Virus record (IMG/VR): IMGVR_UViG_3300045988_183062
Span: 14,512 to 78,511 of that record
Origin: a virus
Length of the DNA: 64,000 nt
Direction: 5' to 3' (one strand)
In this document: positions 3,261 through 32,947 of the stretch, in pieces
Layout of the letters: each line of letters starts with the position of its first letter
How positions within the stretch are numbered: position 1 is the first letter of the stretch
Notes under the pieces: generated by a model
What the model saw: only the letters and a program-made list of their open reading frames with translations
What the model was told of the DNA's origin: nothing
The model's database searches: none
Program-made: the position numbers and the translations under genes

Positions 3261-3263
3261 TGT

Positions 3264-6769: not shown

Positions 6770-6781
6770 GCATCTACCCCA

Positions 6782-9726: not shown

Positions 9727-9735
9727 CAAAGCAAT

Positions 9736-12444: not shown

Positions 12445-12467
12445 ACTGCAAAATATAACGATACATC

Positions 12468-12560: not shown

Positions 12561-12691
12561 TTTTTGTCAAACCTCAAATTGCACATTTCTAAAAGCGCTG
12601 CATTTGAACGCTGCTATGTGTAAGATAGCACTCAACCAAACGCAAAATATGACAAATACACATTTTGCCAATACTGAAAGGAGACATTCTT

Positions 12692-13282
12692 ATGTCTGAA
12701 ATTCACAACACTGACATCCGCGAACTGCTCGATTCCATTCCGGTTATCCCTAATACGCTGATGGAAGAATATCTGACACGTCGGTACGAAATTACACCCA
12801 ACAAGGCTCGCGAAATCATCTACAACGCTTGCCGCAAAGGTTCAAACCGCCGTCCGGCCTGCTATGCTACCAATGACGGCCTTGCCAAAGCCGATTACAT
12901 TACTATGACGAGCCTGTATCGTAAGCGTTGCCGTGCATTCCGTGTTGCTTGCGAGTTCTTGCCGGAGAGCCGTCGTTTTTCGATTCCCGCCACCAGCCCT
13001 TGGTTGCTGAGCTTTTGCTTTGATAGCAGCGTCTATTATGTCTGTGAGTTTGAAAAAGGCAAGGAGCTCATTACGGCTGATATGATTCGCAACGCCGGTA
13101 TTCGCGAAGATATGATGTCCGTTACCTCTCGTATCGCTATTCTGCGCCCTGGCGCAAAGCGTGAGCTGTTGGATGGCTGCGGCATCCGCTTTTTCTGCAC
13201 GGTTGACGATGATTACAACCTCGATGTGACCGAGCAGGTTCCTGACGAGGAGGTTTGGGATGGCGTTCCCATCGTTGATTGA
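12692..13282 (+). CDS. Hypothetical protein
   Basis: RBS AAAGGAGA 8 nt before ATG; coding-like composition. Confidence 0.55.
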   Translation: MSEIHNTDIRELLDSIPVIPNTLMEEYLTRRYEITPNKAREIIYNACRKGSNRRPACYATNDGLAKADYITMTSLYRKRCRAFRVACEFLPESRRFSIPATSPWLLSFCFDSSVYYVCEFEKGKELITADMIRNAGIREDMMSVTSRIAILRPGAKRELLDGCGIRFFCTVDDDYNLDVTEQVPDEEVWDGVPIVD

Positions 13283-14033
13283 TTACAAACGATACATCGA
13301 AGAAAACAAGCCGAACGGAAAACCTGTTTCCAACCGTTCCGATTCACCATCTGAGAAGCCGGTTCTTTACCACGATACGGCAGGGTATGTAAAGAAACAC
13401 GTCCAAAATGCTTCTGCTATGATGAGCCAAATCCAAGATAATATGCCACTCAGCAAGATTTCAGCATCTATCCTGAATAGTGTTTCCATCGAACTTTTGA
13501 AGTCCGAACGCTCGATTTTAGCATCTTTCCAAGGACGAGAAAAGCCTGTTCCGTATAAAAAAGATGCTGGAATGGGTGCTATTCCAGATGATTTCTGTTC
13601 AGTATCAGCACCAAAACATGCGCTCCTGGCGGTACGCTATAAGTCGTTTTTGCCACCATTTCACTATGAGTGGTACAGCCGCAAAGCAAAAGAAAAAGAC
13701 GACGCCGGACAGTATTATTTGGATGCAGAATTCGACATTATTACCGAAGCAGCTGTGACAGAATACATCTCAAAGAATGGGCCTATCAACGTGCCATCAG
13801 GACTTGTGTATCTGGTATTTCGCAGAGGTATCCGACCAGGCGGTAAGATGCCGATAGACAACAATAACGTCTATACGGGGGCTATCACCAATGCTATCAG
13901 CCGCGTACTGCAACACGGTGATGGCTGGCAGCAAATGAGCTTCGTCTACACCGCCATAGAGGATACAGATGGGCCATATCTGGATGTGATTTTGTGCAAA
14001 AAATCAGACATCACAAGATGGATTGAAGCGTAG
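13260..14033 (+). CDS. Hypothetical protein
   Basis: RBS GGAGG 7 nt before ATG 13260, overlaps previous gene end. Confidence 0.55.
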   Translation: MAFPSLIDYKRYIEENKPNGKPVSNRSDSPSEKPVLYHDTAGYVKKHVQNASAMMSQIQDNMPLSKISASILNSVSIELLKSERSILASFQGREKPVPYKKDAGMGAIPDDFCSVSAPKHALLAVRYKSFLPPFHYEWYSRKAKEKDDAGQYYLDAEFDIITEAAVTEYISKNGPINVPSGLVYLVFRRGIRPGGKMPIDNNNVYTGAITNAISRVLQHGDGWQQMSFVYTAIEDTDGPYLDVILCKKSDITRWIEA

Positions 14034-14201: not shown

Positions 14202-15467
14202 ATGACAAACGAGCAAAGGCTTCTGTGTTATCTCTACAGTGTGGATTCCATTCAGCGCAGACAGCTTGTGATTGCACTGTCGGATATGCCGTATCAGAGC
14301 GTTACGCTGGCAGTACGAAATGCAGTCAAGCACGGCTATGTAGAGGTATTTCGCAAGGATGAATCTAACCATCTGCGTATAACGCCAGACGGGGTAAAGT
14401 ACATCCGCTCTACGGCTCGTGATGCGCTGGATGGGCAAAAGCGAGCTACTATGAAGCGGAGGCTCAAGGGTGAAAATGGCAGGCGGCTGAACCGTATGGA
14501 AGTAGTAAGCTGCATGTGTCGAGCGGCAGGCATCAAACTCGCAAAGGAAGAACATATCCGTCTTGAAAATGTTCTGAATGCAGATGCGGATGACTACGCA
14601 AGATTCATGGACGACTACTTCTACGACAAAGGTCTGCTGTTTCTCTCTGACGAACTCTCTACAACCATCAAGGCTGAACAGACAGTTGGCGAGGAATACA
14701 CAACTGGCATGAGCCGTCTGGTAGGAGTGATAGTAAACTGCAAAGGAATCTTCTACGTTTACTGCACGCTGGACAGGTTGATGCGTTGGATTATCTCCTA
14801 TGAGCGCCGCAGAGTCGCAGCTATATCCAGGCTCTTTGAGAGCAGTGACGCAGCAAAAGCCAATGATGATTTTGCTGAAGTGTGTGCGTCTGTACCCAAA
14901 AGCGTCATCATTGGAAAGACTTGCGCCATGATTCCCAAAATCATCACAGGCAACAAGTACGGCAAGGTAGTCGAGAACGCAAGCAGAAGCACTATAACGG
15001 ATAAGCTGATGACTCTTGCGAATCTCGAACAGGTGTACGCATGCAACTACTTCGTTCCAACCAACACGCTCGGCGTAGAACTTCTCTCCAGAACAGTAAC
15101 GCTAACACGAAGCGACCTAAACAGTATGATTGAGATGTGGCTTTCAGAAATGACTGAACGATACACAACTGTTTCATCGCGAGAGTATGTAGAAGCCTAC
15201 ATCGAAGACCAAGAAGATAAGACGCTCATCTTTCCCATCATTGAGCTTGAAGAGCTTGTATTCCAAAAAGCAAGTAAAGAGCGCTATCACATTGTATGTG
15301 AAAGAGGAACGCAAGACGGAATCAGCCGAGTTATGGGCAAAAAACTCATTGACTTCAAAGATATGAACAACACGCCTATGCCTGCACACAAATATGACGA
15401 CTACGGAATCCGCCGTGATGGCATTAACCCGCTAACTCATTCTGGGTATTGGGAGGAAGAACAATGA
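14202..15467 (+). CDS. Hypothetical protein with N-terminal winged-helix-like segment (possible DNA-binding/replication-initiator-like)
   Basis: RBS AGGTGA before ATG 14202; N-terminal region resembles wHTH (LLCYLYS..QLVIALSDMPYQSVTLAVRNAVKHGYVEV). Confidence 0.5.
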   Translation: MTNEQRLLCYLYSVDSIQRRQLVIALSDMPYQSVTLAVRNAVKHGYVEVFRKDESNHLRITPDGVKYIRSTARDALDGQKRATMKRRLKGENGRRLNRMEVVSCMCRAAGIKLAKEEHIRLENVLNADADDYARFMDDYFYDKGLLFLSDELSTTIKAEQTVGEEYTTGMSRLVGVIVNCKGIFYVYCTLDRLMRWIISYERRRVAAISRLFESSDAAKANDDFAEVCASVPKSVIIGKTCAMIPKIITGNKYGKVVENASRSTITDKLMTLANLEQVYACNYFVPTNTLGVELLSRTVTLTRSDLNSMIEMWLSEMTERYTTVSSREYVEAYIEDQEDKTLIFPIIELEELVFQKASKERYHIVCERGTQDGISRVMGKKLIDFKDMNNTPMPAHKYDDYGIRRDGINPLTHSGYWEEEQ

Positions 15468-15945: not shown

Positions 15946-16611
15946 ATGACTAAGAAGTTCATTGTTCCTTACGTAGTTGTATCGCTGGCAATGGCTGCTG
16001 CAATTAGCGTAGCCAGTAGTGATGGAGCCGTAGTTGCAAGAAGCTACTCTGGATACAACAACCAGAAGCCGAGCGTAGCTGCTGACTATACCTATCAAAC
16101 CGTAGGCATTCCCTGGAATAACACTTATGTTGAAGTGACTGCGACACAGGCGAGAGAAATCAAAGATGGCATCGTTATCTTTGCGTATCCTCGCTGCCCT
16201 TACTGCCGCAACCTGATTCCTGAACTTACCAGTATTGCCAAAGAAAAGAACCAGACCGTTTACTACTGCCAAATCGATGAGTACCGCGACATCTACGCAT
16301 ACGACGAGAATACTGGTGCTCCTGTGATGACAAAAGCAGCAGGGGAAGGGTATGATGAACTTCTCAATTGGCTGCAAGACTACCTGGCAGATTACACGAT
16401 AAGCGATAAGGATAAGAACAAGTACGAAATCGGAGAGAAGCGTATCGGCGCTCCTACCATTGTTCGCATCGAAGATGGTGAACCTGTTTCTACCTGGAAG
16501 CTAAGTTCGGTTGAAGATGTTTCGTACCCGGAGAACAAATACGACTCGTGGGATGATACTGTACGAGTTAAAGTCTCTGACTCGCTGAGAGACTACTTTG
16601 AGGAGGCATAA
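15946..16611 (+). CDS. Secreted thioredoxin-fold protein with CPYC active-site motif
   Basis: Signal-like N-terminus MTKKFIVPYVVVSLAMAAAISVASS; YPRCPYCRNLIPEL (CxxC). Confidence 0.65.
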   Translation: MTKKFIVPYVVVSLAMAAAISVASSDGAVVARSYSGYNNQKPSVAADYTYQTVGIPWNNTYVEVTATQAREIKDGIVIFAYPRCPYCRNLIPELTSIAKEKNQTVYYCQIDEYRDIYAYDENTGAPVMTKAAGEGYDELLNWLQDYLADYTISDKDKNKYEIGEKRIGAPTIVRIEDGEPVSTWKLSSVEDVSYPENKYDSWDDTVRVKVSDSLRDYFEEA

Positions 16612-17220: not shown

Positions 17221-17315
17221 GAGATAGGATGAAGCAGTTGCCTGATATAGAGCTATGAGACAACGCTTTGAAGCACACCGGAATTGGGCTGAAGTGAACA
17301 GCCGGAAAGGCAATT

Positions 17316-18074
17316 ATGACCACGAACTTTGAGAACACCTATCAGGCATTCATGCACTGCGACGTAGACAAGCTGGCTGCGGAGTTTGCAGCTATGTATC
17401 ACAGTGGCGGCGAGGAACGCGACCGGCTTACCGATGCGAAGGAAGAGGTCAATGCTGCATTCATGCGCATGAAGACACTCACCCTGAAAGTAGAGCCGGA
17501 ACAAAAACTGCTCTTCGTCTGCAAGGGCTTTGGCGATGTTGGAGATGACACCGTCTGCATCGAAGCCAATGACCTTCGCGAGTGGAAAGAGAAGCACAAA
17601 AAAGTGCCTGAAGCGGAAGCCATCAGCGATGAAATGCTTACCTTTATGAGCACCGACGACATCATGGCGGCCGTAATGAAGCAGGACCTGCCGACCCAAT
17701 ACGCCTTTGAATTTTGCAGCTGGGAAGAGATTCTCAGCTGGAAGCTGGCATCGTCCAGTATCTATATCTACGGCCTTGAGTGGTGCCTTTCCCGCGTGTT
17801 GTGGGAGATGACCTTTTTTGGCATCGAACCTGAAGGTATGGAGAACGCCAAAGCTGAAATCGACGCGAACCTTGAGGAAGCAAAGAAAGACCTCGCTGAA
17901 AACGGCGAACCCAGCAAAGGCATTCCGTTCGAGGAAGTCGTAAAGAAGCTGCTGGGCGACGACTATACCGAAGACTGGTATCCCGAAGAAGAGCAGGAGA
18001 GAGACCGGCGGAATATGGCGATTGCGGCCTACAAGGGAAACCATGAAGCAGAAAAACTGCTCGCGATGCTGTGA
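17316..18074 (+). CDS. Hypothetical acidic protein
   Basis: ORF with coding-like composition, RBS GAAAGG. Confidence 0.5.
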   Translation: MTTNFENTYQAFMHCDVDKLAAEFAAMYHSGGEERDRLTDAKEEVNAAFMRMKTLTLKVEPEQKLLFVCKGFGDVGDDTVCIEANDLREWKEKHKKVPEAEAISDEMLTFMSTDDIMAAVMKQDLPTQYAFEFCSWEEILSWKLASSSIYIYGLEWCLSRVLWEMTFFGIEPEGMENAKAEIDANLEEAKKDLAENGEPSKGIPFEEVVKKLLGDDYTEDWYPEEEQERDRRNMAIAAYKGNHEAEKLLAML

Positions 18075-18133
18075 GGCACCCGATAATCCATCCAGAACAA
18101 AATCAACGCAGAACAGAAAGGAGATGACGACGG

Positions 18134-18922
18134 ATGCTTCTTCATATTTTTGGCGATACACATGGACCGGATGAGATTTTCAAAATCAATCCGAAATGGT
18201 TCCTTAACCGTGACATCACAAAAGATGATGCGATTGTTGTTTGCGGAGACTTCGGATTCCCGTTCTTTCCGACAGACCGCATCCCGGCGGACGACCTCAA
18301 GACACTGGACATGCCGCAACACTGTATCAAGTCGGCGCGAGCGTACCAGATGTACACCGACTGGATGAAGTCTTTTCCTTGCAATATCCTCTTCATCGAT
18401 GGTAACCACGATAACCACACCTTCTGGGCAGAGCAGCCTACCGAACGGTGGAACGGTGGCATGATTCAACGCCTGCCGGAAGCACCGAATGTCATCCACC
18501 TGATGCGTGGCGAATACTACACGATTGATGGCATGACTGTATGGTGCATGGGCGGTGCAGAGTCTATCGACAAAGCATACCGTACGGAAGGCGTCACTTG
18601 GTGGAGGGAAGAAGTCCCATCTCAGAAAGAGATGTGGCACGGTCTTGATACGCTGGAATCTCACGGAAACGAAGTGGATGTTATCCTTACGCACATGCTT
18701 CCACAGATGCTCATGCCAATCTATTTCAGAGACATCAGTCCGATTCACGACCCAACGGGCGTATACCTTGATGAAATCTACCGCCGGGTGAAGTTCAAAC
18801 AATGGTATTGCGGCCACATGCACCAAGACATCGATAAACCGATGTACAAGCTCAGAGTGCTGTACAACCAGATTGCGGAAATAAACACGGACGCCTTTGG
18901 GAAAGAAGGTGATAACCAATGA
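18134..18922 (+). CDS. Calcineurin-like metallophosphoesterase
   Basis: Motifs GDTHG, GDFGFP, GNHDNH. Confidence 0.75.
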   Translation: MLLHIFGDTHGPDEIFKINPKWFLNRDITKDDAIVVCGDFGFPFFPTDRIPADDLKTLDMPQHCIKSARAYQMYTDWMKSFPCNILFIDGNHDNHTFWAEQPTERWNGGMIQRLPEAPNVIHLMRGEYYTIDGMTVWCMGGAESIDKAYRTEGVTWWREEVPSQKEMWHGLDTLESHGNEVDVILTHMLPQMLMPIYFRDISPIHDPTGVYLDEIYRRVKFKQWYCGHMHQDIDKPMYKLRVLYNQIAEINTDAFGKEGDNQ

Positions 18923-19761
18923 GCGACATCTATGTGGCAGGAGATGTGCATGGGAACTACAAAGGCCTCATCGAATCCCTCGTAGCAGCCGGATGGAATG
19001 AAGGAACCGACAAGCTCGTCTTCGTCGGTGATGTAGTAGACCGTGGAAAGGAAAACGCAAAGGTCGTCAACTTCATTACGGAACATCCAGATACAGTCCA
19101 TCTCGTTCTTGGTAACCACGAATACGAACATAGGCAGATGCTTCGATACTATAAAACACTCGCACAGTCTCTGACCGTCAGAAAGCTCGCAGCCTGGGTA
19201 TTTCTGCACTACAGACAGGGAGAGAACATCTTCAGAACAAAAGAAGAACTCGAAGCGCTCAGATGCGGCATGGAGGAGAGAAAGAATATTCTCGCCGCAA
19301 GACCTCATACATTCGCTGGGTGGCAAAAGCTCTTCATCACCTACACTCTCGCGTGGGAGAATGATGGGCTTTGGCAGATTGTCGTATACTTGCTTGACAA
19401 TATGTGTGGCACACCGTATGAAGCAGAGCATACCATCTACGAGTACCTGTCTGGTACGAAAAAGACGAGAGAGAACTTTGAAGTTATCTTCGAGAATCAG
19501 GCACAGGAACTCAACATCACACCTCTGCCTGGCTCTCGATTCAAACAAGTCGTAGTGACACACAACAATCCGTTCGGTCGAGTCTTTGATTATGATAAAG
19601 ACGAAATGCTGACCGGTCATCGGGATACGCTCTATATTTTTGGACACATCCCTCATAAAGAAATCACTCGCATGGACAGACCTAACTCCGGCTGCACATA
19701 CCTCGACATTGATACATCTCCATACGGAGTATCCGTCATTAAGCTATCTAACTATCTCTAA
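18919..19761 (+). CDS. Metallophosphoesterase of PPP/ApaH-like type
   Basis: Motifs GDVHGN, GDVVDRG, GNHE; start overlaps previous stop (ATGA). Confidence 0.75.
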   Translation: MSDIYVAGDVHGNYKGLIESLVAAGWNEGTDKLVFVGDVVDRGKENAKVVNFITEHPDTVHLVLGNHEYEHRQMLRYYKTLAQSLTVRKLAAWVFLHYRQGENIFRTKEELEALRCGMEERKNILAARPHTFAGWQKLFITYTLAWENDGLWQIVVYLLDNMCGTPYEAEHTIYEYLSGTKKTRENFEVIFENQAQELNITPLPGSRFKQVVVTHNNPFGRVFDYDKDEMLTGHRDTLYIFGHIPHKEITRMDRPNSGCTYLDIDTSPYGVSVIKLSNYL

Positions 19762-19771
19762 ATAACGATAC

Positions 19772-19815
19772 GCACGTCATAGGGGCCTACGGGCTTCTGT
19801 GACGTGCTTTTCTTG
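19772..19815 (+). terminator. Rho-independent terminator
   Basis: gcacgtcata..tgtgacgtgc hairpin followed by TTTTCTTG. Confidence 0.65.
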
Positions 19816-20232
19816 TTGTACGGGAAGAATGTCGGACTAAACGCTCGGAACCTCGTAGCAGGCAGCCTTGTGGCGCTGTGAAGGGAAACCAAAGGGAATA
19901 ATAATGCTGTGACTTACACGAATAGTTACACGCGTGTAAGCCATAGACGAATCCTGTTGCACGGCGTGTAAGTTCTCTTTGTGCTGGATGAACTACGGCA
20001 ATAGGCATGGTCCAGTACATCCGGCACGCGCTTCATAGCGTGCAAGCGCTGCCAGACATCATATCAGAGCAGCCAACCATGACACAGTTGGCAAGCAACT
20101 CTATGTGGGAGCCGAGTGCGGCGTTCACGCAAACCACAAACAGTAGAACGGAACTCGTTGTAAAAAGTGCCGGAATCAGCAAAAACTCGTCGGGAAAATG
20201 TGAAGCTTGCCGTACACGGAAAAGCGTGGCGA

Positions 20233-20261
20233 TTGATAAATACCGCAACATGTCGTATAAT
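20233..20261 (+). promoter_or_regulatory. Sigma70-type promoter TTGATA-17-TATAAT
   Basis: Consensus hexamers 46 nt upstream of ATG 20307. Confidence 0.55.
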
Positions 20262-20306
20262 GTTGTATTAGAGAAATCTGGCGCAACCCAGACAAAGGAG
20301 AACACG

Positions 20307-22451
20307 ATGGGCAAAAGCAAGGCAAAACACAATAGCAAGAAACCAACTGGCAGCTTCAAAGAACGATGCAAACAAGCGGTACTGAAGAACATAGCTGGAT
20401 TCGGCGGTGAGATTGAGAAGGACCCATCCCTTGCCTTTGAGTTTGACATCGACAACAAAACAATAGACCGGCGAGTGGAAGCTATTGCTGAAACACGAGA
20501 CATGGCAGTAGCTATTGCCAAAGAATATATACCGGAAGACCTTGAGGTACGATACGAGGCCGAATGGGTCCGCCTGAATATGGTGATGACACCTCCGTTC
20601 AACATAGGCGAGCGGCAGTTCAATTACTCGCTCGCTGCGGCCATCTGGATACTGGACACCATCAGAGCAAACCACAAGATGGATGAGGCCCTCGCTTTGC
20701 TGCCAAAGGACGAGGAAAAGCTCGCGTCTATCGAACTACCGTCTTGTGTATCGCCTTGTTATAGTGAAGCCGTAATTCGCAGTATGGTTTATGTCATCCT
20801 GCATCGAAACGAGGATTGTGTCGGCATCAACAACCCGGAGAAGCCTCCGCTCAAGTATCCTGTTACAGACAGCTATACCGTTGCGGGTAAGCAGCATCAG
20901 AATGTACTGTCCAGAAATGTGTTTGATACCATTATTGGCTTGCTCCCGGAAGACAAGGTCGATAATGCTGTAAATACGTATGCCATACAGGTAAGGGGAG
21001 CCATAAGTCGTTATTTCTGTTGCCGCTCCAAGTGGGTCAAGGAAGAAAAGAAATGCCTGGATGAAATCCATCGCCTTGATGACGAGCTTAATAAAGTGAG
21101 TGACGAGGCAAATGCTTTTTCCAAAAAGACGCATTCTATGGTCAAGGCAAAAGCCATGCCGCTTGCTAAAAATAATATGCCTGGAGTCGGCGCGAAAGCC
21201 GAAATGACCATCGGGCTCCATTCTATTGCAGAACGCGGAGAAACTATCGTTGCAAAGTTAGAGGCAATGCAAACCAAGCTCCAAAAGCTCAACGAGTTGG
21301 AAAGAGACTTTGCTTATGATAGTGCCGAATGCGCCTATTGGACAGAAGAAACATGGACAAAGAAATACTCGACGGCCGTAGCAAAACGTGCGGTGAAGTT
21401 TGAAGTCATGGACCCGTATGCAGTATGCTTCGCATTCTATTACATGATAGATAACGGCGATAATCTTCCGTGGCTTTACTATCCATCCTGTGTGCTTCTC
21501 TCCCACGCAGCGGCACAACTACCGTGGTGTGGAGGAGCAGTCAAACAATGCGTGGATGCAACAGGTCAAACCACTTTCTATATTGATGCCAATACAGCCA
21601 AGCTCCATCTGATGGAAGACAACCTAACAAGCGATAGTAGTGTTGTGCCAATCTGCTGGAATACGATGTCCTTGGTACAACAAGAAGGTGCAGACGCAAA
21701 TACTCCCGTGCGTATAACCCCGGCGGCCGCCGTATACACCTATACCGATGGAGTCCTCGTTCCACGTAACACAGCCAGCGCAGACCCGATAGAAGCAACA
21801 CTTGCCGATTTGGGTGTGACAGCGCCAGAAGGTAGAGCTGTATACGCCGCATACATATCTCTACTGTCCAACCTAAAAGGCCGCATCGATTTTCCCAACG
21901 ACGCAAAAGATGAGTGCGATGCTCTACGTGCCAAATGCGATGCGTATGAAGCAGAGATTGAGAATCTCAAGAGTAAGGATGAAAAGAATAAGCAGGCACT
22001 CTATAAAGCTGAAAAGACAATCGGTGAGCTGACTACTGCCATAGAGAAGGCTTCTGCAGAACACGAGAAAGAAAAGCAAGAGCTGAACGACCTTCGTGAG
22101 CTTGTGTTTGCGCTGACCAATGACGCAGACTCTGCCGCCAGGAAAGATTCCAAGACGCAGGTAGAGTTCCCGTACCACACCACCAAGAAGCACATCGTCT
22201 TTGGCGGACATCCTTCCTGGCTGAAGGCAATACGGCCGATGGTGCCGGATGTGAAATTCGTGGATGGAGTTCCGAGCACTGAACAAATCAAGGGCGCGGA
22301 CATCGTATGGCTGCAAACCAACTACCTCTCCCATAAGGCTTTCTACAAAATCATCGACATTGTCCGCAGCAAGAACATCCCGCTGCGCTATTTTACTTCC
22401 GCCTCCGCTGCAAAATGCGCAGAGCAGGTAGTCAATGCGGACCAGCAATAA
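20307..22451 (+). CDS. Large hypothetical protein: N-terminal unique region, coiled coil, C-terminal ~100 aa alpha/beta domain with VFGGHP motif (shared with 24043-25743 protein)
   Basis: RBS AAAGGAGAACACG before ATG 20307; heptad-like segment (EAEIENLKSKDEKNKQALYKAEKTIGEL..); C-terminal HIVFGGHPSWL..ADIVWLQTNYLSHKAFYKII. Confidence 0.6.
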   Translation: MGKSKAKHNSKKPTGSFKERCKQAVLKNIAGFGGEIEKDPSLAFEFDIDNKTIDRRVEAIAETRDMAVAIAKEYIPEDLEVRYEAEWVRLNMVMTPPFNIGERQFNYSLAAAIWILDTIRANHKMDEALALLPKDEEKLASIELPSCVSPCYSEAVIRSMVYVILHRNEDCVGINNPEKPPLKYPVTDSYTVAGKQHQNVLSRNVFDTIIGLLPEDKVDNAVNTYAIQVRGAISRYFCCRSKWVKEEKKCLDEIHRLDDELNKVSDEANAFSKKTHSMVKAKAMPLAKNNMPGVGAKAEMTIGLHSIAERGETIVAKLEAMQTKLQKLNELERDFAYDSAECAYWTEETWTKKYSTAVAKRAVKFEVMDPYAVCFAFYYMIDNGDNLPWLYYPSCVLLSHAAAQLPWCGGAVKQCVDATGQTTFYIDANTAKLHLMEDNLTSDSSVVPICWNTMSLVQQEGADANTPVRITPAAAVYTYTDGVLVPRNTASADPIEATLADLGVTAPEGRAVYAAYISLLSNLKGRIDFPNDAKDECDALRAKCDAYEAEIENLKSKDEKNKQALYKAEKTIGELTTAIEKASAEHEKEKQELNDLRELVFALTNDADSAARKDSKTQVEFPYHTTKKHIVFGGHPSWLKAIRPMVPDVKFVDGVPSTEQIKGADIVWLQTNYLSHKAFYKIIDIVRSKNIPLRYFTSASAAKCAEQVVNADQQ

Positions 22452-22589
22452 AAGCTGTTACTTGCTTCGGCTCAGAGCAAACTATCTACGCAGATTGCTA
22501 ATACTTGCTAAATATTTGCTACAAGTCACTTTCGCAATTTTGAAAATTTTCTCTGAAAAAGTCTCTGTTTTATAAAAGAGGGGATTGGT

Positions 22590-23396
22590 ATGAGCATCAT
22601 TCGAGCAGAAGTCTCAGGATACCGTCACATCGGATACTATGATTCAGAATTTGTCATAAAAGGCATCTTACACATTGATACCAGGCAATACAACTTCCTA
22701 CACTACGACGGAGCCTTTGGATTCTCTCGTCTTGAAATCAAAGCCGGAAAGGTGAAAGCATCCTACGACGAAGCAGAAGGCTTCCAGATGCAGCAGGGCA
22801 AAGAGGCCCCGGAAGGCGGGCTTCTGAATGTGAACCGAAAGGATGCTATCAAGCAAATACAGGAAGCAGCGACTTCCTATCTAACAACAGACCTCAATGC
22901 CTGGGCGGAATACTTCAACCTTGCAACTCGCAGCGCCGGGCCATTTGCCTACACCCTAACACAGTGCATTGCCTTTCCGACTGAAAAATACCGCTGCACG
23001 ATAACACCCGCATCACCTTACTGCGAACTGATTTATAATTTTGGCTTCGATGAAGAATGTCCGAAAGTCGAATCACCGTTGTTCCCAGGCGAAGAACTGT
23101 TCGACACAAAGATTGACCTTGACTTTATCGAAGGACCAGCCAGATGGCTCTATAGTATCCTGCTTTTGGATGACGAAGAGCACGAGCTTCCACTCAATAA
23201 GGACTATTCCCGTATCGTCAGCTTAGAGATGGCCCTCGACTGCAAACTGACCTTTGAGGGCTTCCAAGACGATGAACAGACAGGACAACGCAAGAACTTG
23301 ATTCTCTTCTCGGATGTTATGAGAGAAAAGAAGCAGAGAGAGTTTGACACTGCTTATCAGCGTGCGAAGGAAGGCGTTGAGAACCGCAAGCCATAA
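22590..23396 (+). CDS. Hypothetical protein
   Basis: RBS AGAGGGGA before ATG. Confidence 0.5.
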   Translation: MSIIRAEVSGYRHIGYYDSEFVIKGILHIDTRQYNFLHYDGAFGFSRLEIKAGKVKASYDEAEGFQMQQGKEAPEGGLLNVNRKDAIKQIQEAATSYLTTDLNAWAEYFNLATRSAGPFAYTLTQCIAFPTEKYRCTITPASPYCELIYNFGFDEECPKVESPLFPGEELFDTKIDLDFIEGPARWLYSILLLDDEEHELPLNKDYSRIVSLEMALDCKLTFEGFQDDEQTGQRKNLILFSDVMREKKQREFDTAYQRAKEGVENRKP

Positions 23397-23507
23397 AACG
23401 CGCTACACGCCATAAATTCAGGCATCGGCATGCAGAAAATGAAAACGAGTTGTGCATAGGGCGATAAACTATACAGAGACACATCGTACTCAGAAAGAGG
23501 CATCTTC

Positions 23508-23972
23508 ATGGAACTTGCAGACCATAACTCGAAGCAGTTCGAGGGAAACATCATCAGATTGCAGCTTCGTACCACTTGTACGAAACTAAGTCTCGATGCA
23601 GAACCAAACAAAGAATCAGAACAGCGACTTATTGTAGCAGAGCAGGGAGGTCATGTATATCTCGAACAGCTCGAATATCTGGATGGAGATGAACCAGTCC
23701 GAGACCACTACACCATCCATCATCTACCGGCCGATACAATACATTCCGTGCTCGCGAAAGTAAAACATCATTTGCCGATGCTCCTGCAAACAGATGAAGC
23801 GCAACACACCGACCGCTGGTATCTTACCCTGACAAACGATGTGGGGGAACAATATCTCTTCCGTGGCCGTATAGGTCTTGACCAGAACAAAGAGCTTTCA
23901 GATTACCTCCGCACGACTCTTCAATTGCCTAACTTATGGGCGTTTATCAAAGAAGAACTGAAAAATCTGTAA
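23508..23972 (+). CDS. Hypothetical protein
   Basis: RBS AAAGAGG before ATG. Confidence 0.5.
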   Translation: MELADHNSKQFEGNIIRLQLRTTCTKLSLDAEPNKESEQRLIVAEQGGHVYLEQLEYLDGDEPVRDHYTIHHLPADTIHSVLAKVKHHLPMLLQTDEAQHTDRWYLTLTNDVGEQYLFRGRIGLDQNKELSDYLRTTLQLPNLWAFIKEELKNL

Positions 23973-24042
23973 CATTCTTACCGCCAACATTGGTTGTTGA
24001 TACCGCTCTTGGTATAATACAGATAGAAAAGGAGTGAATGAC

Positions 24043-25743
24043 GTGGCAAAGAACAAAATTCCAAAAACCATGACAGTGGGCGCGTTGTACGATAAGTATG
24101 CCGAACGCATGGCGCTATTTGCGAGCCGAAGCAAAGCGTGCATAGAACTGTCCGACAAATACTACCGTGAACATCAAGACAAGGTAGATAAGCATATCAA
24201 AGCAATTTGCCACGGAGAGCATCCGCTTCAATACATATTAGGCTTAGATACAGTGCAGAGCCGCAATGCAGTCCTGTGCCTGGCATGTATTCTAAGCAGC
24301 GACGAAAAAGACAAGCCACAGTTTACCGAAGACCTCCTATCAACCTATCTGAAAAACACGAAGAAAGAAAAGTTGCCTCCGATTAACGAAAAAGCGCTCG
24401 AAGCAGTATACAGTAAGATAGAATCAACACCTGATAACGACAAGAATAAGCAAACCATAGCGTATGATGCTTTTACGGAGCATAAACTGAACCCTCCATC
24501 CAGGGCGTTCTTTGCGGTATATGCGTCTCGGTATAAGAACTTCGATTCTTGCAGCAATGACCTCTACACCAATGCACTCTTGGCGATGATGCTGCTTGGT
24601 AATATCAACACGACTGCCAAGGTCCGCTACATGGAACGCTACGACTATTTGTATCGAACCATAGTACGGCCGCGATTTGCTGCTAAAAGCTTCGGTGCCA
24701 CCTGGATTAACGACTCCAATACGATGCGCCGGAAAACAGGTATAGAGCGCGATGAAGAAAACGCTCTCCAGATGCCTCTTATCGCGACACTCACGGCCAG
24801 TGGCGTAATGAACCAGCAAAGAATGGATAAGAAGGTGCTGTCCAAGGAAATGCTGATGCACATGGCAGTCGCTGCTTATACGGCTGCCGGTATCGATAAA
24901 GTAGATGCACCGCTTGAGAAGGTATGGGAAGCGATTGACGCAGAAAACGAATCTGCTTACGATGACGAAACCATACAGATAGCAAAAGAGAAAGTAAAAA
25001 TATTTCGTACCGCACTCTTTAATGCTACTTACTATACGATGCTTTGCGAGCAAACGAAGAAAACTGTGCTGGAAGGATTGCAGGATTACTTCTTCAATCC
25101 GCAAGGCACACGTCTGAACAACGAGCTGAAGAAGTGCAAGCGACAGATGGAACGGGACGGTAAGCTGCTGAAACAGCAGAAAGAGTCTCTGAAGGAATAC
25201 AAGGTCCGCGCCGATGCGGCAGAACGTGCGGCCGAAGATGCCAGAAACCGTTATGCAGGTATCCAATCCAAGGTCGAGTCCCAGCAAAAGCAAATCACGG
25301 ACCTGGAGGAGCAGCTCAAGGCGCTGCAGGAAGAGAACGCCAGGCTGCGTCAGCAGCTTCCAGCTCAACCGACTGAAGAAAGAGCAGAGGCTGCCACGGC
25401 GGAACCAGACATCAACTATGAGGAGGAGCTTTCAGAAATCTTCTCGGCCAAGAAAATCGTCTTCATCGGCGGGCATCCAAACATCATGGGCAAATTTGCT
25501 CAGAAATACCCGGAAGCAGCTGTCGTCGAGAAAGATAAGGCAATGACGGCCGATAGGCAATTGGACGGTGCGGCCGCCGTACTCTTCAAGACTGACAGCA
25601 TGGGCCATAAAGAGTATACGCCAATCAAAGACCTTGCCGGACGAAAAGGCGTTCCGGTAGGCTACATCCGTGATGTCACATCGCTGAACCTTGTAGAGCA
25701 GAGCGTATACGAGGAACTCAAAAAACTGAATATCACAGAATAA
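24043..25743 (+). CDS. Large hypothetical protein with coiled coil and the same C-terminal VFIGGHP domain
   Basis: RBS AAAGGAG; probable GTG start 24034-24043; coiled coil (ESQQKQITDLEEQLKALQEENARLRQQL); C-terminal KIVFIGGHPNIMG..AAAVLFKTDSMGHKEYTPIKD. Confidence 0.6.
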   Translation: MAKNKIPKTMTVGALYDKYAERMALFASRSKACIELSDKYYREHQDKVDKHIKAICHGEHPLQYILGLDTVQSRNAVLCLACILSSDEKDKPQFTEDLLSTYLKNTKKEKLPPINEKALEAVYSKIESTPDNDKNKQTIAYDAFTEHKLNPPSRAFFAVYASRYKNFDSCSNDLYTNALLAMMLLGNINTTAKVRYMERYDYLYRTIVRPRFAAKSFGATWINDSNTMRRKTGIERDEENALQMPLIATLTASGVMNQQRMDKKVLSKEMLMHMAVAAYTAAGIDKVDAPLEKVWEAIDAENESAYDDETIQIAKEKVKIFRTALFNATYYTMLCEQTKKTVLEGLQDYFFNPQGTRLNNELKKCKRQMERDGKLLKQQKESLKEYKVRADAAERAAEDARNRYAGIQSKVESQQKQITDLEEQLKALQEENARLRQQLPAQPTEERAEAATAEPDINYEEELSEIFSAKKIVFIGGHPNIMGKFAQKYPEAAVVEKDKAMTADRQLDGAAAVLFKTDSMGHKEYTPIKDLAGRKGVPVGYIRDVTSLNLVEQSVYEELKKLNITE

Positions 25744-25938
25744 AGTAAAAGAGGGGAGCTAAACAAGCTCCTCTCTTTCTTTTGTCAAGGTCTTCCACAG
25801 TTGTAGAGTAACTAATGGGATTGCAAACGGCAAATTCTTCCATACCCCTTGCATCTCACCACTTGATAGGCTATAATAACAACAGTCAGTTGTTATATGC
25901 AAATTAGGAACCATCTGTACGAATTGAGGTTGTATATT

Positions 25939-27207
25939 ATGGCAAAAGAACGAGCCATCCTTCATTGCGATATGAACTGCTTCTATGCCAGCTGTGAGAT
26001 GGCCTACTATCCTGAATTACGGGACAAGCCGATTGCCGTGTGCGGTGACCCAGAACGGCGGAGTGGCATCGTATTGACCGCTTCATACCCGGCCAAGCGG
26101 ATGGGCGTGAAAACCGGTATGCCGCTTTGGGAGGCGCAGCAGCATTGCAGAGACATCACCTTTGTTCCGGCTCACTATGACCTATACACCCGATTCAGCG
26201 GCTACACCAGAGAAATCTTCCTGCGCTATACAGACCAAGTCGAACCGTTTGGCTTGGACGAGGCCTGGCTCGATTGTACCGCGAGTCAGTCTCTCTTTGG
26301 GACAGGGGAGGAGATAGCAAAGAAAATCTCCGACACCGTCAAGGACGAACTCGGCATTACCTGCTCGGTCGGAGTCAGTTGGAATAAAACGATGGCAAAA
26401 CTCGGCTCGGACTATAAAAAGCCGGATGCTATTACGGTCATCAACAGGCAGAACTTCGAGAAGATAGTTTTTCCGCTGCCTGCTTCGGATTTGCTATATG
26501 TAGGAAAGAAAACGGCTGCCAAGTTAGATAACTATGCTATACATACCATTGGAGACTTGGCAAAGACCAGACCTCAGTTTCTGCAGGAGAAGCTCGGCAA
26601 GGTGGGGCTCTTGCTCTGGAGGTTTGCCAACGGCCTGGATTCTGACCCGGTGGCAAAGTACGAGCAGCGGGAGGTGCTTGCTCCCATCAAGAGCATCGGA
26701 AATAGCTGGACGACACCACGGGACTTAAAGACCGACCAGGATGTTTGGATAGTGCTTTACCTGCTCGCAGAGAGTGTCGCGGCACGCCTCCGAGAGAACC
26801 ATTTCCGATGCCGAGGCGTGGAGGTGAGTTTGAGAGACTCCAACCTATTCAGCTTCGAGCGCCAGATGAAACTGTCCCTACCGACAATGCAGGAGCAGGA
26901 GATAGCGACGGCCGCGTTCACGTTATATAAAAAGCACTATCATTGGAGCGAGCATCTTCGTTCCATTGGCGTGCGGGCCATAGACCTACAGCCGGATACG
27001 GAGCCTTGCCAAATCTCGTTCGACTTCAGTGCCGAAAAGCAAGAAGAGATGGAACGCTTAGAATCTGCCATTGATGGGGTCAGAAACCGATTTGGATACT
27101 ATTCTGTACAGCGAACCGTGATGTATAAGGACCGACTCCTCTCGCATTGCGACGCGAGGGCAGACCATACGATTCACCCACACGGATACTTACAAGGGAG
27201 CATATAA
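25939..27207 (+). CDS. Y-family DNA polymerase (UmuC/DinB-like)
   Basis: N-terminal HCDMNCFYASCE motif (cf. DMDAFFASVE), typical length. Confidence 0.8.
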   Translation: MAKERAILHCDMNCFYASCEMAYYPELRDKPIAVCGDPERRSGIVLTASYPAKRMGVKTGMPLWEAQQHCRDITFVPAHYDLYTRFSGYTREIFLRYTDQVEPFGLDEAWLDCTASQSLFGTGEEIAKKISDTVKDELGITCSVGVSWNKTMAKLGSDYKKPDAITVINRQNFEKIVFPLPASDLLYVGKKTAAKLDNYAIHTIGDLAKTRPQFLQEKLGKVGLLLWRFANGLDSDPVAKYEQREVLAPIKSIGNSWTTPRDLKTDQDVWIVLYLLAESVAARLRENHFRCRGVEVSLRDSNLFSFERQMKLSLPTMQEQEIATAAFTLYKKHYHWSEHLRSIGVRAIDLQPDTEPCQISFDFSAEKQEEMERLESAIDGVRNRFGYYSVQRTVMYKDRLLSHCDARADHTIHPHGYLQGSI

Positions 27208-27210
27208 TCC

Positions 27211-27483
27211 ATGCCAGAACAGAGAATCAAGAAATATGTTGAGGTCATCGCTGACTTTCAGCCGGACGGAACACTCATACCACAGACCGTTATCTGGGAT
27301 ACGGGCCAACGCTTCGACATCACAAACATTTCGGAGGTGATGCCGCGCAAATACTCTAAGACCGGCGGTGTGGGGGTACGCTATACATGCCAGATTGGCA
27401 GAGCCAGCACATATCTCTATTATGAAGTAGATAAATGGTTCGTGGAAGCACGAAAAAGCGCCACAGCAGCAGACCCTTGTTAA
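27211..27483 (+). CDS. Small protein immediately downstream of Y-family polymerase (possible accessory subunit)
   Basis: ATG 4 nt after polymerase stop. Confidence 0.45.
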   Translation: MPEQRIKKYVEVIADFQPDGTLIPQTVIWDTGQRFDITNISEVMPRKYSKTGGVGVRYTCQIGRASTYLYYEVDKWFVEARKSATAADPC

Positions 27484-27505
27484 GGCCCACCACCGTGGCG
27501 TGCGG

Positions 27506-27814
27506 TTAGCATAATACCGCGTCTCTGACATCCATGTAATCCCAGATGATGTCGAGCACTTTCTTTTTAGGGGTATCCTCCTCAAGTTGAGAGGCGTTCC
27601 GCAGGAGTTCATGCACAGATAAGCCAAGATACTCAGCAATCTGCTTCATCTGCGGATACGTCGCAAGTACACGGCCGCATAAAAACCTTTCTGCCTCGAC
27701 TTCCTGGCATCCGAGCAGGGAAGCAACAGAGGACACTGAAACATTCCGCTCTTCCATTTTCTGCCTGATATAAGCACCCAGCATTCGTGCATTTGGCACA
27801 AGAATCACCTCCAA
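27506..27814 (-). CDS. XRE/Cro-C1-type helix-turn-helix transcriptional regulator
   Basis: HTH segment VSSVASLLGCQEVEAERF; minus strand. Confidence 0.65.
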   Translation of the reverse strand: MEVILVPNARMLGAYIRQKMEERNVSVSSVASLLGCQEVEAERFLCGRVLATYPQMKQIAEYLGLSVHELLRNASQLEEDTPKKKVLDIIWDYMDVRDAVLC

Positions 27815-27820
27815 ATGAGG

Positions 27821-28204
27821 TCAAGCCTCCTCGTCAGGAGACTCAGTGTCTTCACTCGCCAGCTGACGCATAGCACGGCGGAACTCGACCAGCTCCTTCT
27901 TTGTCAGAGCGCTTGTAACCATAGCAGCGTAGAACTCCGGACGGCTCATAGCTGCGACAAAGGTTCTCGCATAGGTCTTACCTGCGCGGACCATACCATC
28001 TTCCTTAATACAGCCTTTCTTCATCAAGGAATTGATGATGGCGAAGATGGAACGCTCTTTCCAGAACAGGTCACCATTCTCTTTCACATGGTCAAGGATA
28101 TCCTGCTGGCACAGCGGCTTTTTGCTGTTCCAGAAAGCCTTCATAACGGTTTCCTCTGCGGGAGTCAAATGATACGGACGGGGCGCATGGCTGGAAGCTG
28201 CCAT
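27821..28204 (-). CDS. BlaI/MecI/CopY-family winged-helix repressor
   Basis: LTPAEETVMKAFW...DILDHV.. pattern characteristic of penicillinase-repressor family; minus strand, co-oriented with XRE gene. Confidence 0.7.
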   Translation of the reverse strand: MAASSHAPRPYHLTPAEETVMKAFWNSKKPLCQQDILDHVKENGDLFWKERSIFAIINSLMKKGCIKEDGMVRAGKTYARTFVAAMSRPEFYAAMVTSALTKKELVEFRRAMRQLASEDTESPDEEA

Positions 28205-28346
28205 AACAAACACCAACTTTCATTGTTATTCTGTAATGCTGATTTCAATTATACGGAATTGCGCTAATTCGTCAATATCGTCACTTTAATTATGAACGAC
28301 ATTGACAAAAGATGATAAATTGTCCAATTGACAGAAAGGAGCCTGT

Positions 28347-28871
28347 ATGGGAAAATTTAAGAAGCAAACATGCTGCTTTACGGGGCATCGAGACATTCCG
28401 CCGGGCGAGCAGACAAAGATACTGACCAGGGTAAGGCACCGGCTTATCCCGCTTGTTCAGAGCGGAATCATCTACTATGGAGTGGGTGGTGCTTTAGGGT
28501 TCGATACCCTCGTAGCTGAGATGCTTATTGAGCTGAAGAAAGAAAACAGCCGCCTGCGTATCATCGAGGTGCTTCCCTTTGAAGGCTACCGCGACCGATG
28601 GACTCCAGAACAGCAGCTCCATGCCAAGAACTTAGACAAAAAGATGGACAAAATCGTCTATGTCAGTAAAGAACCGAGCAAGAGCGCTTACTTGACCCGT
28701 GACCGCCACCTGGTTGATTGCTCCGACTACTGCATCTCTTACTGCACGAAACAAACGGGAGGTACAGCCTATACTGTGAAATACGCTCTTGAGAAACAGT
28801 TGACGGTCTATAACGCATCATCGTTCGATGTGACATCATTACTCGGAGCAGCACCTCTTCATCACAAATAA
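28347..28871 (+). CDS. SLOG/DUF1273(YpsA)-like Rossmann-fold protein (tentative)
   Basis: N-terminal CCFTGHR motif and size ~170 aa; RBS AAAGGAG. Confidence 0.45.
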   Translation: MGKFKKQTCCFTGHRDIPPGEQTKILTRVRHRLIPLVQSGIIYYGVGGALGFDTLVAEMLIELKKENSRLRIIEVLPFEGYRDRWTPEQQLHAKNLDKKMDKIVYVSKEPSKSAYLTRDRHLVDCSDYCISYCTKQTGGTAYTVKYALEKQLTVYNASSFDVTSLLGAAPLHHK

Positions 28872-31030: not shown

Positions 31031-31261
31031 GCGGAATTGGGTTCCGGTGGGTCTTAACCTCTTCCTGCCGGTGTTTACGGTGTTGTTTTCTCTCACTCTT
31101 ACATGTTGTGTGGTCCGCTTGTATTCACCCCATCGGCTTTTTCCTGGGCCGGTGGTTCATATAAAAGGCTGTGGTTGCTTTTGCTTCCGCAGCTTTTTTG
31201 TTTGTATTCGCGCCTGCACAAAAGACAGGCATTGGTTGTGATGAGCGAAAGGAGTATGAAT

Positions 31262-32947
31262 ATGGCGCTTATCATCGGGATTGTAGCAGTCCTTATTATC
31301 ATCTTCGGCTTTCTGTGCTACAAGAAGGCCCCTCCGACGGAGGCTATCGTCGTGACCGGCTTTGGGTTGTCAAAGCCCAAAGTAGTATCCGGTAAAGGCA
31401 CGTTTGTGCTTCCTGTCTTGCAACGAGCAGACAAACTGAACATGCGGCTTCTGAAGATTGATGTCAAGACCCCGGAAACAGGCGTTAAGACTCAGAATGG
31501 TGTCAGCCTTTGGATTGATTCTGTTGTGACGATTCAGGTTTACAGTGAGAACTCCACTGTGTTGGACGATGAGGTCAAAGCATCTGGTCTGAAGGACGCC
31601 AAGGCGTATATCATGTCCCGCCAGCAGGCAGCTATCTCGAACTTCTTGGGCATGAACGAGCAGGGCATCAACGACAAGGTCAATGACGTTCTGCAGGGCA
31701 ACCTGCGTGAGATTGTCTCCGACATGACCGTTGACCAGATTCTGACAAACCGCAAGCAGATGGCACTGAGCGTCATTGAGAACGCTCGTCCAGACCTCGC
31801 CAAGATGGGCCTTGAGGTCGTGACCTTCAATGTTCAAGACATTAGGGACGCGATTGATGCACAGGGCCACAATCACGGTGTCATCGAAGCTATCGGCATC
31901 GAGCAGGAAGAACTGGTGAAGAAGCAGGCTGAGATTGCTCGTGCCCAGGCTGCTCGCGATGTGGCATGTGCCAAAGCAGATGCTGAGATGGCAGCGAACG
32001 CCAAGGAAGTTGAAGCCCAGACCGCTATCGCACAGCGCAACAACGAGTTGCAGCTTGCCAAGGCAAAGCTGAAGGCAGAAGCTGACAAGGCTGCGGCCGA
32101 CGCAGATGCTGCCGGTCGTATCCAGATGAACCTCCGTGCCAAGGAAATCAAAGAAGCTGAGGCTGACGCAGAGATTGCCAAGCAGAAAAAGATGGTTGAC
32201 CTTGCTGCGCAGGAAGCAGAAGTTCAGCAGCGTAAGTTGGACGCAGAAGTTCGTAAACAGGCTGATGCAGACCTGTACCGCCGTCAGAAAGAGGCGGAGG
32301 CCAAGAAGTACGAGGCTGAGCGTGCGGCCGAGGCTACCAAGTTCGCCAAGCAGCAGGAGGCAGAAGGCATCGAGATGGTCGGTAAAGCTGAGGCTGAAGC
32401 CATTCGCCAGAAAGGTCTGGCAGAGGCCGAAGCCATGAAACAGAAAGCCGAAGCCTACAAACAGTACAACGATGCGGCCGTGGCTGAAATGCTCATTAAG
32501 GTTCTGCCCGACATCGCCAAGAGCGTGGCTCAGCCGCTGTCCAGCATCGACAAGGTCTCCATCATCGGCGGCGATGCCTCCGGCGTATCCGGCGTTTCCG
32601 GTAACGTCCCGGTGCTCATGGCACAGACCATGCAGACGGTGAAGGAAGCCACCGGCATTGATATGGGCGAGATTGTTCGCGCCAATAGCATCCAGGCCAA
32701 GACGGACCGCAACATCCATATCGATGGTGTGGAGTTGGACGAGCCGAAAACTCACATCACCTCCGAGCGTGTCGAAGATGGTTGGATGTTCCATGAGAAG
32801 GACCCCATCACCGGTGAGGACAAAACTTCTTTCCGTCCCGATTTTACGGACGAGGAAAAGGCCATCATAGATGCTCACGCCAAGGCAGCTGAGAATCATG
32901 CTACCACCAACAAAACCAATCCGTATAAAAAGGGCTTCAATAAATAA
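31262..32947 (+). CDS. Flotillin/SPFH (band-7) domain membrane protein with long Ala/Glu/Lys-rich coiled coil
   Basis: RBS AAAGGAG before ATG 31262; N-terminal TM then SPFH-like core; EA-repeat coiled-coil typical of FloT/YuaG. Confidence 0.7.
   Translation: MALIIGIVAVLIIIFGFLCYKKAPPTEAIVVTGFGLSKPKVVSGKGTFVLPVLQRADKLNMRLLKIDVKTPETGVKTQNGVSLWIDSVVTIQVYSENSTVLDDEVKASGLKDAKAYIMSRQQAAISNFLGMNEQGINDKVNDVLQGNLREIVSDMTVDQILTNRKQMALSVIENARPDLAKMGLEVVTFNVQDIRDAIDAQGHNHGVIEAIGIEQEELVKKQAEIARAQAARDVACAKADAEMAANAKEVEAQTAIAQRNNELQLAKAKLKAEADKAAADADAAGRIQMNLRAKEIKEAEADAEIAKQKKMVDLAAQEAEVQQRKLDAEVRKQADADLYRRQKEAEAKKYEAERAAEATKFAKQQEAEGIEMVGKAEAEAIRQKGLAEAEAMKQKAEAYKQYNDAAVAEMLIKVLPDIAKSVAQPLSSIDKVSIIGGDASGVSGVSGNVPVLMAQTMQTVKEATGIDMGEIVRANSIQAKTDRNIHIDGVELDEPKTHITSERVEDGWMFHEKDPITGEDKTSFRPDFTDEEKAIIDAHAKAAENHATTNKTNPYKKGFNK

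Follow-up and report, generated by a model that had tools for sequence, protein, structure and literature searches.

A DUF2325-like C-terminal module shared by two coiled-coil proteins in the cargo region of a conjugative element from gut Clostridia

Do genes that lie together on a mobile element also act together? And does a domain shared by two large neighbouring proteins hint at a common task? Both questions are raised by a 7.6-kilobase (kb) stretch of IMG/VR record IMGVR_UViG_3300045988_183062, positions 18134-25743 of the window, the whole 64,000-nucleotide stretch of DNA that was analysed and to which all gene coordinates refer. The stretch lies within the cargo (accessory) portion of a conjugative element whose host is a Clostridia bacterium of the human gut. 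It encodes two phosphoesterases (MPE1 and MPE2), a large protein A (the product of 20307-22451), two small proteins (s268 and s154) and a second large protein, B (the product of 24043-25743). A sequence-only reading had proposed that the phosphoesterases, A and B form a multi-component system. We find that A and B end in a common coiled coil and α/β domain, and that the locus is very probably not one system. Compared loci carry L numbers below, and homologous proteins carry P numbers.

The C-terminal module of proteins A and B

The two proteins and their parts, all on the + strand, are as follows (aa, amino acids).

20307-22451, +: protein A, 714 aa, member of a large family of ~700-aa proteins
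20307-21881, +: all-helical N-terminal region of A, residues ~1-525 (AlphaFold)
21900-22130, +: single long helix or coiled coil of A, residues 532-608 (77 residues; AlphaFold; coiled-coil-type matches only)
22164-22448, +: DUF2325-like α/β domain at the C-terminus of A, residues 620-714 (PF10087, AlphaFold)
24043-25743, +: protein B, 566 aa, member of a smaller family of ~565-aa proteins
25078-25407, +: coiled coil of B, residues approximately 346-455 (coiled-coil-type matches only; aligns with the coiled coil of A in hhalign)
25435-25740, +: DUF2325-like domain at the C-terminus of B, residues ~465-566 (PF10087, 16 bits; aligns with the domain of A)

Protein A starts at the ATG at 20307, 7 nucleotides past an AAGGAG, and its homologues measure 709-733 aa and begin with MGKSK. 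Protein B starts at the GTG at 24043, likewise past an AAGGAG; its 96%-identical homologue P0034 is 566 aa long and begins with MAKNK. The full-length AlphaFold model of A (mean predicted local distance difference test score, pLDDT, 83) falls into three parts: a helical N-terminal region (residues ~17-524) that contains a long helical hairpin (residues 215-341), a long helix, and the α/β domain. The N-terminal region of A has no relative in Pfam or the PDB, and that of B returned coiled-coil noise only in Pfam, PHROGs, NCBIfam and PADLOC.

Are the two C-termini truly related? BLASTP aligns them at 26% identity over 88 residues (E=5e-9). Comparison of the family profiles by hhalign, built from 62 A-type and 18 B-type sequences, yields a probability of 98.8% (E=4e-17) over the coiled coil and the C-terminal domain only, with no alignment between the N-terminal regions. 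These alignments confirm what had been noticed from the letters alone, a common C-terminal coiled coil with an α/β domain behind unrelated N-termini; the domain measures ~95 aa, and the motifs reported at that time (VFxGGHP, T-x3-SHK and IPxxY) are present and conserved. The reality of the observed genes and of the shared domain is far beyond chance.

The isolated domain, modelled from a 42-sequence alignment, adopts a β1-α1-β2-β3-α2-β4-α3 fold with four strands (AlphaFold pLDDT 94) that is flavodoxin/Rossmann-like. The α/β topology described earlier is confirmed by this model. The domain is not a response-regulator receiver domain: the five-stranded (β/α)5 arrangement and the acidic pocket of such domains (DD, a phospho-acceptor Asp, Thr/Ser and Lys) are not found. 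Structural neighbours are generic and include the response-regulator receiver, TIR, B12-binding, phosphotransferase system IIB and CysG N-terminal nicotinamide adenine dinucleotide domains. Residues conserved in both families are G19-G20-[H/N]21 after β1 and [Q/K]56-T57-[N/D]58 with H62 after β3, and also Y81 in β4, P33, P78 and E92. The polar residues common to the two domains lie at strand ends and helix starts, the usual ligand-binding place in flavodoxin/Rossmann-type domains, and some positions are family-specific (H/Q/N in A versus N/K/D in B). Nucleotide-binding Rossmann domains combine a GxGxxG-type loop with an acidic residue after strand 2; the domain of A and B has a GG loop, and the acidic residue, judged by eye, is frequent rather than invariant. 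Conservation of the C-terminal domain is roughly double that of the N-terminal region in A-type and B-type proteins alike, with identities of 83% versus 46% in P0021 and 67% versus 26% in P0081.

Pfam searches returned one consistent match for this domain, DUF2325 (PF10087), in 47 of the 62 A-family and 16 of the 18 B-family sequences and in all 42 isolated domain fragments (best E=5e-9). The match extends from profile position 1-2 to 85-91 of 94 in the relatives, and no other family recurs. Protein A scores 24.4 bits at full length and 27.7 bits as an isolated domain, B scores 16 bits, and the best relatives reach ~31-32 bits; because all of these stay under the gathering threshold of 33.6 bits, the C-terminal domain is, on profile evidence, a divergent member of DUF2325 that falls below the Pfam cut-off. 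It is thus not the novel domain that had been announced. The companion statement, that it cannot be assigned to a characterised family, holds, since DUF2325 is itself uncharacterised.

Other candidate relationships were tried. Sequence-profile searches of the PDB with the domain, A-family and B-family alignments gave coiled-coil or chance matches only. The SLOG superfamily (YpsA/LOG/DprA) was rejected at an hhalign probability of 0.1% against the window's own YpsA protein, a comparison with one sequence only. In PADLOC-DB v2 all matches were of coiled-coil type (LmuB, JetC, DruC and PbeC; E 4.5e-5 to 1e-2), and the phosphoesterases and small genes had none. The likeness to LmuB of Lamassu and JetC of Wadjet, seen as weak PADLOC and NCBIfam matches over that same range of E-values, was dismissed together with any resemblance to SMC proteins: the matches are confined to the coiled coil, A and B are without the ATPase head domains, and the scores of 14-25 bits compare with curated cut-offs of 300-730.

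How far does this architecture reach? Classical DUF2325 members are single-domain proteins of ~100 aa, whereas here the domain forms the C-terminal end of coiled-coil mobile-element proteins of 560-800 aa. One DUF2325 protein, Campylobacter jejuni Cj1384c, is rich in Cys, and oxidative stress induces it (PMC9426514). When the domain profile was searched exhaustively with HMMER, 1,928 representatives of 50% identity clusters were retrieved at E<=1e-3, and 748 at E<=1e-10, mostly proteins of 550-800 aa that carry the domain at their very C-terminal end. With already-found homologues set aside, the next top 144 matches included 92 full-length A homologues (25-35% identity) and 11-13 proteins carrying the N-terminal region of B, two of which matched that of A too. 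Still other unrelated N-terminal regions precede the module in P0125, P0133, P0170, P0176, P0204, P0235 and P0247. At least five or six unrelated N-terminal domains, all of them unknown, are combined with the module on mobile elements of Clostridia and their relatives; the hosts belong chiefly to Oscillospiraceae, Ruminococcus, Lachnospiraceae and Christensenellaceae, with Anaerovibrio and others besides. A further homologue search with the domain alignment yielded only fragments of families already found.

The same coiled coil and domain occur in a 481-aa hypothetical protein (WP_018112662.1) of the Clostridioides difficile phage-plasmids phiCD211 and phiCDIF1296T, which differs from A and B in its shorter, distinct N-terminal domain and in its residence on a phage-plasmid instead of a conjugative element. 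The 481-aa protein matches PHROG family phrog_11092, which also matches residues 529-711 of A (E=7e-11), and tblastn gave 25.7% over 175 aa. In the 131-kb C. difficile phage-plasmid of locus L136 (NZ_CP020426.2, 2911-15393) the 481-aa protein lies in a same-strand array of ~12 small hypothetical genes, with ArdA first, and the array is followed by three helix-turn-helix regulators, an IS200/TnpB element and a Doc toxin gene.

Co-occurrence across related loci

If A, B, the phosphoesterases and the small genes belonged to one system, do they also travel together? The remaining features of the locus and its borders are listed below.

17316-18074, +: DUF6557 protein, 252 aa (PF20194, E=1.8e-11)
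18134-18922, +: MPE1, 262 aa, generic calcineurin-like phosphoesterase (PF00149, 37.6 bits versus a cut-off of 21.5)
18919-19761, +: MPE2, 280 aa, PPP-type phosphoesterase (PF00149, 53 bits versus a cut-off of 21.5)
19772-19807, +: terminator-like hairpin of 16 pairs with a T-rich tail, after MPE2
20233-20261, +: promoter-like site, TTGATA-17-TATAAT, 11/12 (consensus match only), 46 nucleotides before the start of A
22590-23396, +: s268, 268 aa, no family match
23508-23972, +: s154, 154 aa, no family match
25748-25778, +: terminator-like hairpin of 13 pairs, after B
25897-27207, +: Y-family DNA polymerase, ImpB/UmuC-like (PF00817, E=1.5e-47)

Close relatives keep the block intact: L079 and L090-L098, which are near-identical, retain all of it. 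In L002-L005, L100, L103 and L104, where B is at ~60%, the phosphoesterases and B are present and A is absent, and the order runs DUF6557-MPE1-MPE2, a ~2.1-kb stretch poor in open reading frames in the place of A, then s268-B-polymerase. We read this stretch in L002 (6728-8854; the other six loci are alike), where it has no open reading frame above 137 aa and no Rfam match, and where a segment of ~65 nucleotides comprising the ribosome-binding site and first codons of the following 84-aa gene is duplicated, at about 8393 and 8838. The stretch may represent the remains of a decayed gene, a non-coding element or the scar of a recombination event. In L099 protein A comes after B, and in L105 and L106 A adjoins B without the small genes. 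Locus L001, with A at 51%, has sortase and pilin genes upstream and neither the phosphoesterases nor B.

Beyond these relatives the genes part company. Among ~65 A-family loci (a genome scan plus L001), nearly all from other species, no homologue of MPE2, of s268 or s154, or of the N-terminal domain of B lies near A, except in the close relative L006; weak MPE1-like matches were seen near A in L034 and L038 only. The two neighbours on either side of A, taken over 44 distinct contexts, represent 138 Pfam families, and no family occurs in more than 5 of the 139 proteins. Helix-turn-helix regulators, Y-family polymerases, a Ruminococcus-specific SPFH/amylase pair, coupling proteins, integrases and IS66 recur most often. 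For B, more than 40 loci were compared, and phosphoesterases, A and B occur together only in close relatives of the element; homologues of B below 50% identity are found without the other locus genes. The genes were thus not co-conserved across the genomes compared, an outcome that the sequence-only reading had itself listed under its refutation, and the proposed multi-component system was not borne out: co-occurrence is limited to a single element lineage, is variable even there, and A has no conserved neighbour. We conclude that the phosphoesterases, A, the small genes and B are very probably not one system because a terminator-like hairpin and a promoter-like site intervene, the genes are separable, A has no conserved neighbour, and no PADLOC model fits beyond the coiled coil.

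What, then, are the neighbours of the more distant B homologues? In L076 the homologue adjoins Rep3 and ParA/ParB on a conjugative plasmid. There (10001-13137), a 1.4-kb spacer before Rep3 holds a 44-nucleotide tandem pair and several 25-nucleotide repeats, iteron-like in look. In L078 (143-3120) and L108-L128 the homologue adjoins RepL, in a context of Tn7-like and type I restriction-modification genes, and in L129-L133 it lies near a weak RepB_primase-like gene. In L108-L128 (for example L111, 2227-15362), the B homologue and RepL stand between a Tn7-like module (TnsB-like, TniB and TniQ) and a type I restriction enzyme that comprises a 1051-aa HsdR-like protein and a 632-aa neighbour, an arrangement that suggests the plasmid/cargo junction of a Tn7-like element.

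The phosphoesterases themselves are as described earlier, two tandem calcineurin-type enzymes, both above the PF00149 cut-off and both carrying the motif series of such metallophosphoesterases (DxH / GD / GNH[DE] / H / GHxH): GDTHG, GD, GNHD and GHMH can be read in MPE1, and GDVHG, GDVVDRG and GNHE in MPE2. MPE1 matches phrog_1649 from end to end (E=9e-36); MPE2, whose start overlaps the stop of MPE1 by 4 nucleotides, matches phrog_246 (NinI-like phosphatase, E=1.9e-24) and resembles lambda phosphatase/NinI, ApaH and PrpE over its N-terminal half. Assignment to the ApaH/PrpE/PrpA-type equivalogs of NCBIfam fails, with a best score of 53 bits versus 176 (ApaH-like NF001204) and remaining scores of 20-39 bits versus cut-offs of 218-750 (e.g. 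21 versus 340). The pair therefore differs from ApaH and PrpE in scoring well under these cut-offs, and outside the element lineage it has no link to A or B. The DUF6557 gene lies 5' of the pair and is syntenic in L002-L005 and L090-L104, and in L002 a comparable hairpin follows MPE2.

Between A and B there are indeed two small genes of unknown family, as had been reported, with nothing matching s268 or s154 in Pfam, PHROG, NCBIfam or PADLOC. By tblastn, s268 adjoins B, or lies upstream of A, within the element lineage only. Protein s154 is an unannotated domain with the pattern …W.L.LTND…E…F.G… LWAF, and this domain recurs 3' of A homologues (L001, L006 and L081-L084), at the N-terminal end of a protein of 387 aa and within another of 178 aa. 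Its regions in L001 are:

12158-13321 (L001): s154-domain region
14269-14805 (L001): s154-domain region

The stretch 18134-25743 holds six co-oriented genes on the + strand, and a codon-usage gene caller, trained on long open reading frames of the window and related loci, picks exactly these six over overlapping long antisense frames. Three such antisense frames (302, 296 and 292 aa; - strand, 17253-19656) overlap the DUF6557 and phosphoesterase genes; as codon-usage scoring favours the + strand genes, they are probably non-coding.

The surrounding conjugative element

On what kind of element does this cargo sit? The conjugation genes lie upstream of the locus.

64-12444: type IV secretion genes, with an M23 peptidase protein (1332-3215), a coupling protein (4598-6769) and a VirB4-like ATPase (9736-12444)
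12665-13282: DUF5697 gene, after the VirB4-like ATPase

Pfam identifies the coupling protein as T4SS-DNA_transf (E=3.8e-49) and the ATPase as P-loop_TraG (E=2.2e-19), so that the window holds both the type IV coupling protein and the VirB4-type ATPase that define a conjugative element. Neither a relaxase nor an oriT was identified within the window. Near-identical DNA was not found among curated plasmids or phages, so there is no annotation to borrow, and tblastn of B against plasmids gave no match. The IMG/VR contig of locus L079 (IMGVR_UViG_3300045988_182892, 83.9 kb) contains the entire block at 95-98% identity and is filed as viral; given the conjugation genes of the window, it may be a plasmid or integrative and conjugative element misfiled as a virus, or a phage-plasmid.

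Downstream of B, a block at 25897-28871 is conserved in the element lineage and in L001. It holds the Y-family polymerase, a 90-aa protein, an XRE-like open reading frame (27506-27814, - strand; by eye), a BlaI/Penicillinase_R-like repressor (27821-28216, - strand) and the YpsA-type SLOG protein (28347-28871). The Y-family polymerase is the commonest recurring neighbour of the A/B lineage and lies near A in about 10 loci. A 454-aa upstream protein, considered as RepL, was rejected as not RepL-like.

Several other genes of the window caught our attention. The 221-aa product of 15946-16611, which has a hydrophobic stretch in its N-terminal part and a CPYC motif ("FAYPRCPYCRNL"), looks, by eye, like a secreted thioredoxin-like protein; it has no Pfam match at E<=0.001. 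An HDV-like ribozyme of the Faecalibacterium prausnitzii type (Rfam RF02682; 32984-33055, + strand; 47 bits versus a gathering score of 44) lies directly 3' of a flotillin/SPFH gene (31103-32947), and the same flotillin/SPFH-ribozyme arrangement occurs in L002 (18561-18631, RF02682 at 49.8 bits). Further cargo includes an RlaP-type nucleotidyltransferase (52479-53486), a 959-aa UvrD/AAA_30-type helicase (53843-56722) and a metallo-beta-lactamase-fold protein (61399-62556).

What proteins A and B may do

How might the locus then be understood? We favour, with confidence evenly divided, a reading of three separable modules that lie side by side, with A and B as independent mobile-element proteins. 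The first module would comprise DUF6557 and the two phosphoesterases, closed by the strong terminator-like hairpin; the second would be protein A behind its near-consensus promoter-like site; and the third would unite the two lineage-specific small genes with protein B. The mechanism that we attach to this reading is offered tentatively and, taken by itself, is less likely than not. Each of A and B would dimerise via its own coiled coil. The slowly evolving C-terminal domain may bind a conserved phosphorylated small ligand or a partner of the host or element, at a putative polar pocket on the C-terminal edge of the sheet lined by GG[H/N] after strand 1, [Q/K]-T-[N/D]-x3-H after strand 3 and a Tyr after strand 4. 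As no DUF2325 protein has an established biochemical function, ligand binding is proposed solely from the fold and the residue positions. The fast-evolving helical N-terminal domain would provide target specificity, and A and B might each act alone as a maintenance or establishment factor of the mobile element. For the B type, plasmid replication or maintenance would be the likeliest arena, because distant homologues adjoin replication initiators of three unrelated families.

Several observations weigh against this interpretation. The window proteins remain below the DUF2325 gathering threshold, and the searchable literature (DUF2325, PF10087 and the COG and PIRSF identifiers) holds five incidental mentions and no functional study. 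The promoter and terminator calls are consensus matches whose overall counts do not exceed those of shuffled controls. The RepB_primase-like match in L129-L133 is weak (23.6 bits versus a cut-off of 24.3), no iteron-like repeats were found when iterons or an origin were sought next to B in the window, and in the window lineage B is not adjacent to a recognised Rep gene. Moreover, A and B co-occur in four arrangements within that lineage, so that a lineage-specific partnership keeps some room.

Such a partnership, in which coiled coils and C-terminal domains heterodimerise and unite two N-terminal domains, would draw on these arrangements (A-s268-s154-B in the window, s268-B-A in L099, A next to B in L105 and L106) and on the homology of the shared parts. 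It is nonetheless unlikely: many lineage members have B without A, A stands alone in ~60 loci and B in more than 25, and the two C-terminal domains are just ~24-26% identical, with residues particular to each family. Less likely still, and very improbable in our judgement, is that the phosphoesterases, A, the small genes and B constitute one defence or anti-defence machine that senses or degrades a nucleotide signal. In its favour, the genes lie side by side and in one orientation both in the window and in ~9 near-identical loci, the phosphoesterases could hydrolyse nucleotides, and the C-terminal domain is Rossmann-like with a GG loop; yet a terminator-like hairpin and a promoter-like site separate MPE2 from A, the components come apart in every comparison past close relatives, and the PADLOC matches amount to coiled-coil noise. 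We give the least credence, next to none, to a degenerate Toprim domain that would make the proteins nucleases. JGI/IMG names the A homologue P0265 a 'predicted nuclease with TOPRIM domain', and the four-stranded β-α-β-β-α-β-α topology of the domain is of the same general kind as that of the Toprim fold, but the name, like 'archaellum component FlaC' given to a B homologue, probably reflects nothing more than a match to the coiled coil. The idea was rejected because the catalytic motifs are missing: GG[H/N] replaces the Glu after strand 1, and T-[N/D]-x stands after strand 3 instead of DxD.

Could A and B act at an earlier stage, as establishment or anti-defence factors expressed on entry into a new cell, in a role like that of ArdA-type leading-region genes? 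We consider this unlikely, if less so than a partnership of A with B. The phiCD211-type homologue lies in the small-gene array that starts with ArdA, and A is directly 3' of the coupling-protein gene in L019, L021, L025 and L027. Y-family polymerases, the recurrent neighbours, are common in plasmid leading regions, and a fast-evolving N-terminus with a conserved C-terminal domain would fit target binding in an arms race. Set against this are the lack of homology to known anti-defence proteins, the fact that oriT and leading region were not located in the window, and the apparently chromosomal position of many A homologues, which in five Ruminococcus genomes, for instance, is between an SPFH and an amylase gene; the association of B with Rep genes favours maintenance.

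What does the reading of separable modules mean for these elements? Little is understood of the conjugative plasmids and integrative elements of gut Clostridia, whose cargo is mostly unannotated. Recognising an apparent locus as juxtaposed independent modules averts a false system call. A bolder view, which we regard as speculative and on balance improbable, is that proteins with this module make up a large and so far undescribed class of modular mobile-element proteins of gut Firmicutes (~1,900 clusters, at least six N-terminal domains), in which a conserved mini-Rossmann domain would bind a nucleotide-like ligand or host factor and a fast-evolving N-terminal domain would pick the target; B would then be a new plasmid replication or maintenance factor across Rep3, RepL and primase-type replicons, and A a new establishment or anti-defence factor. 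The orphan family DUF2325 gains a context, for it recurs as a conserved C-terminal module in large coiled-coil proteins, hundreds of them, that are encoded on plasmids, integrative and conjugative elements and phage-plasmids, and the occurrence of B types beside unrelated replication initiators provides a testable lead for a function in maintenance.

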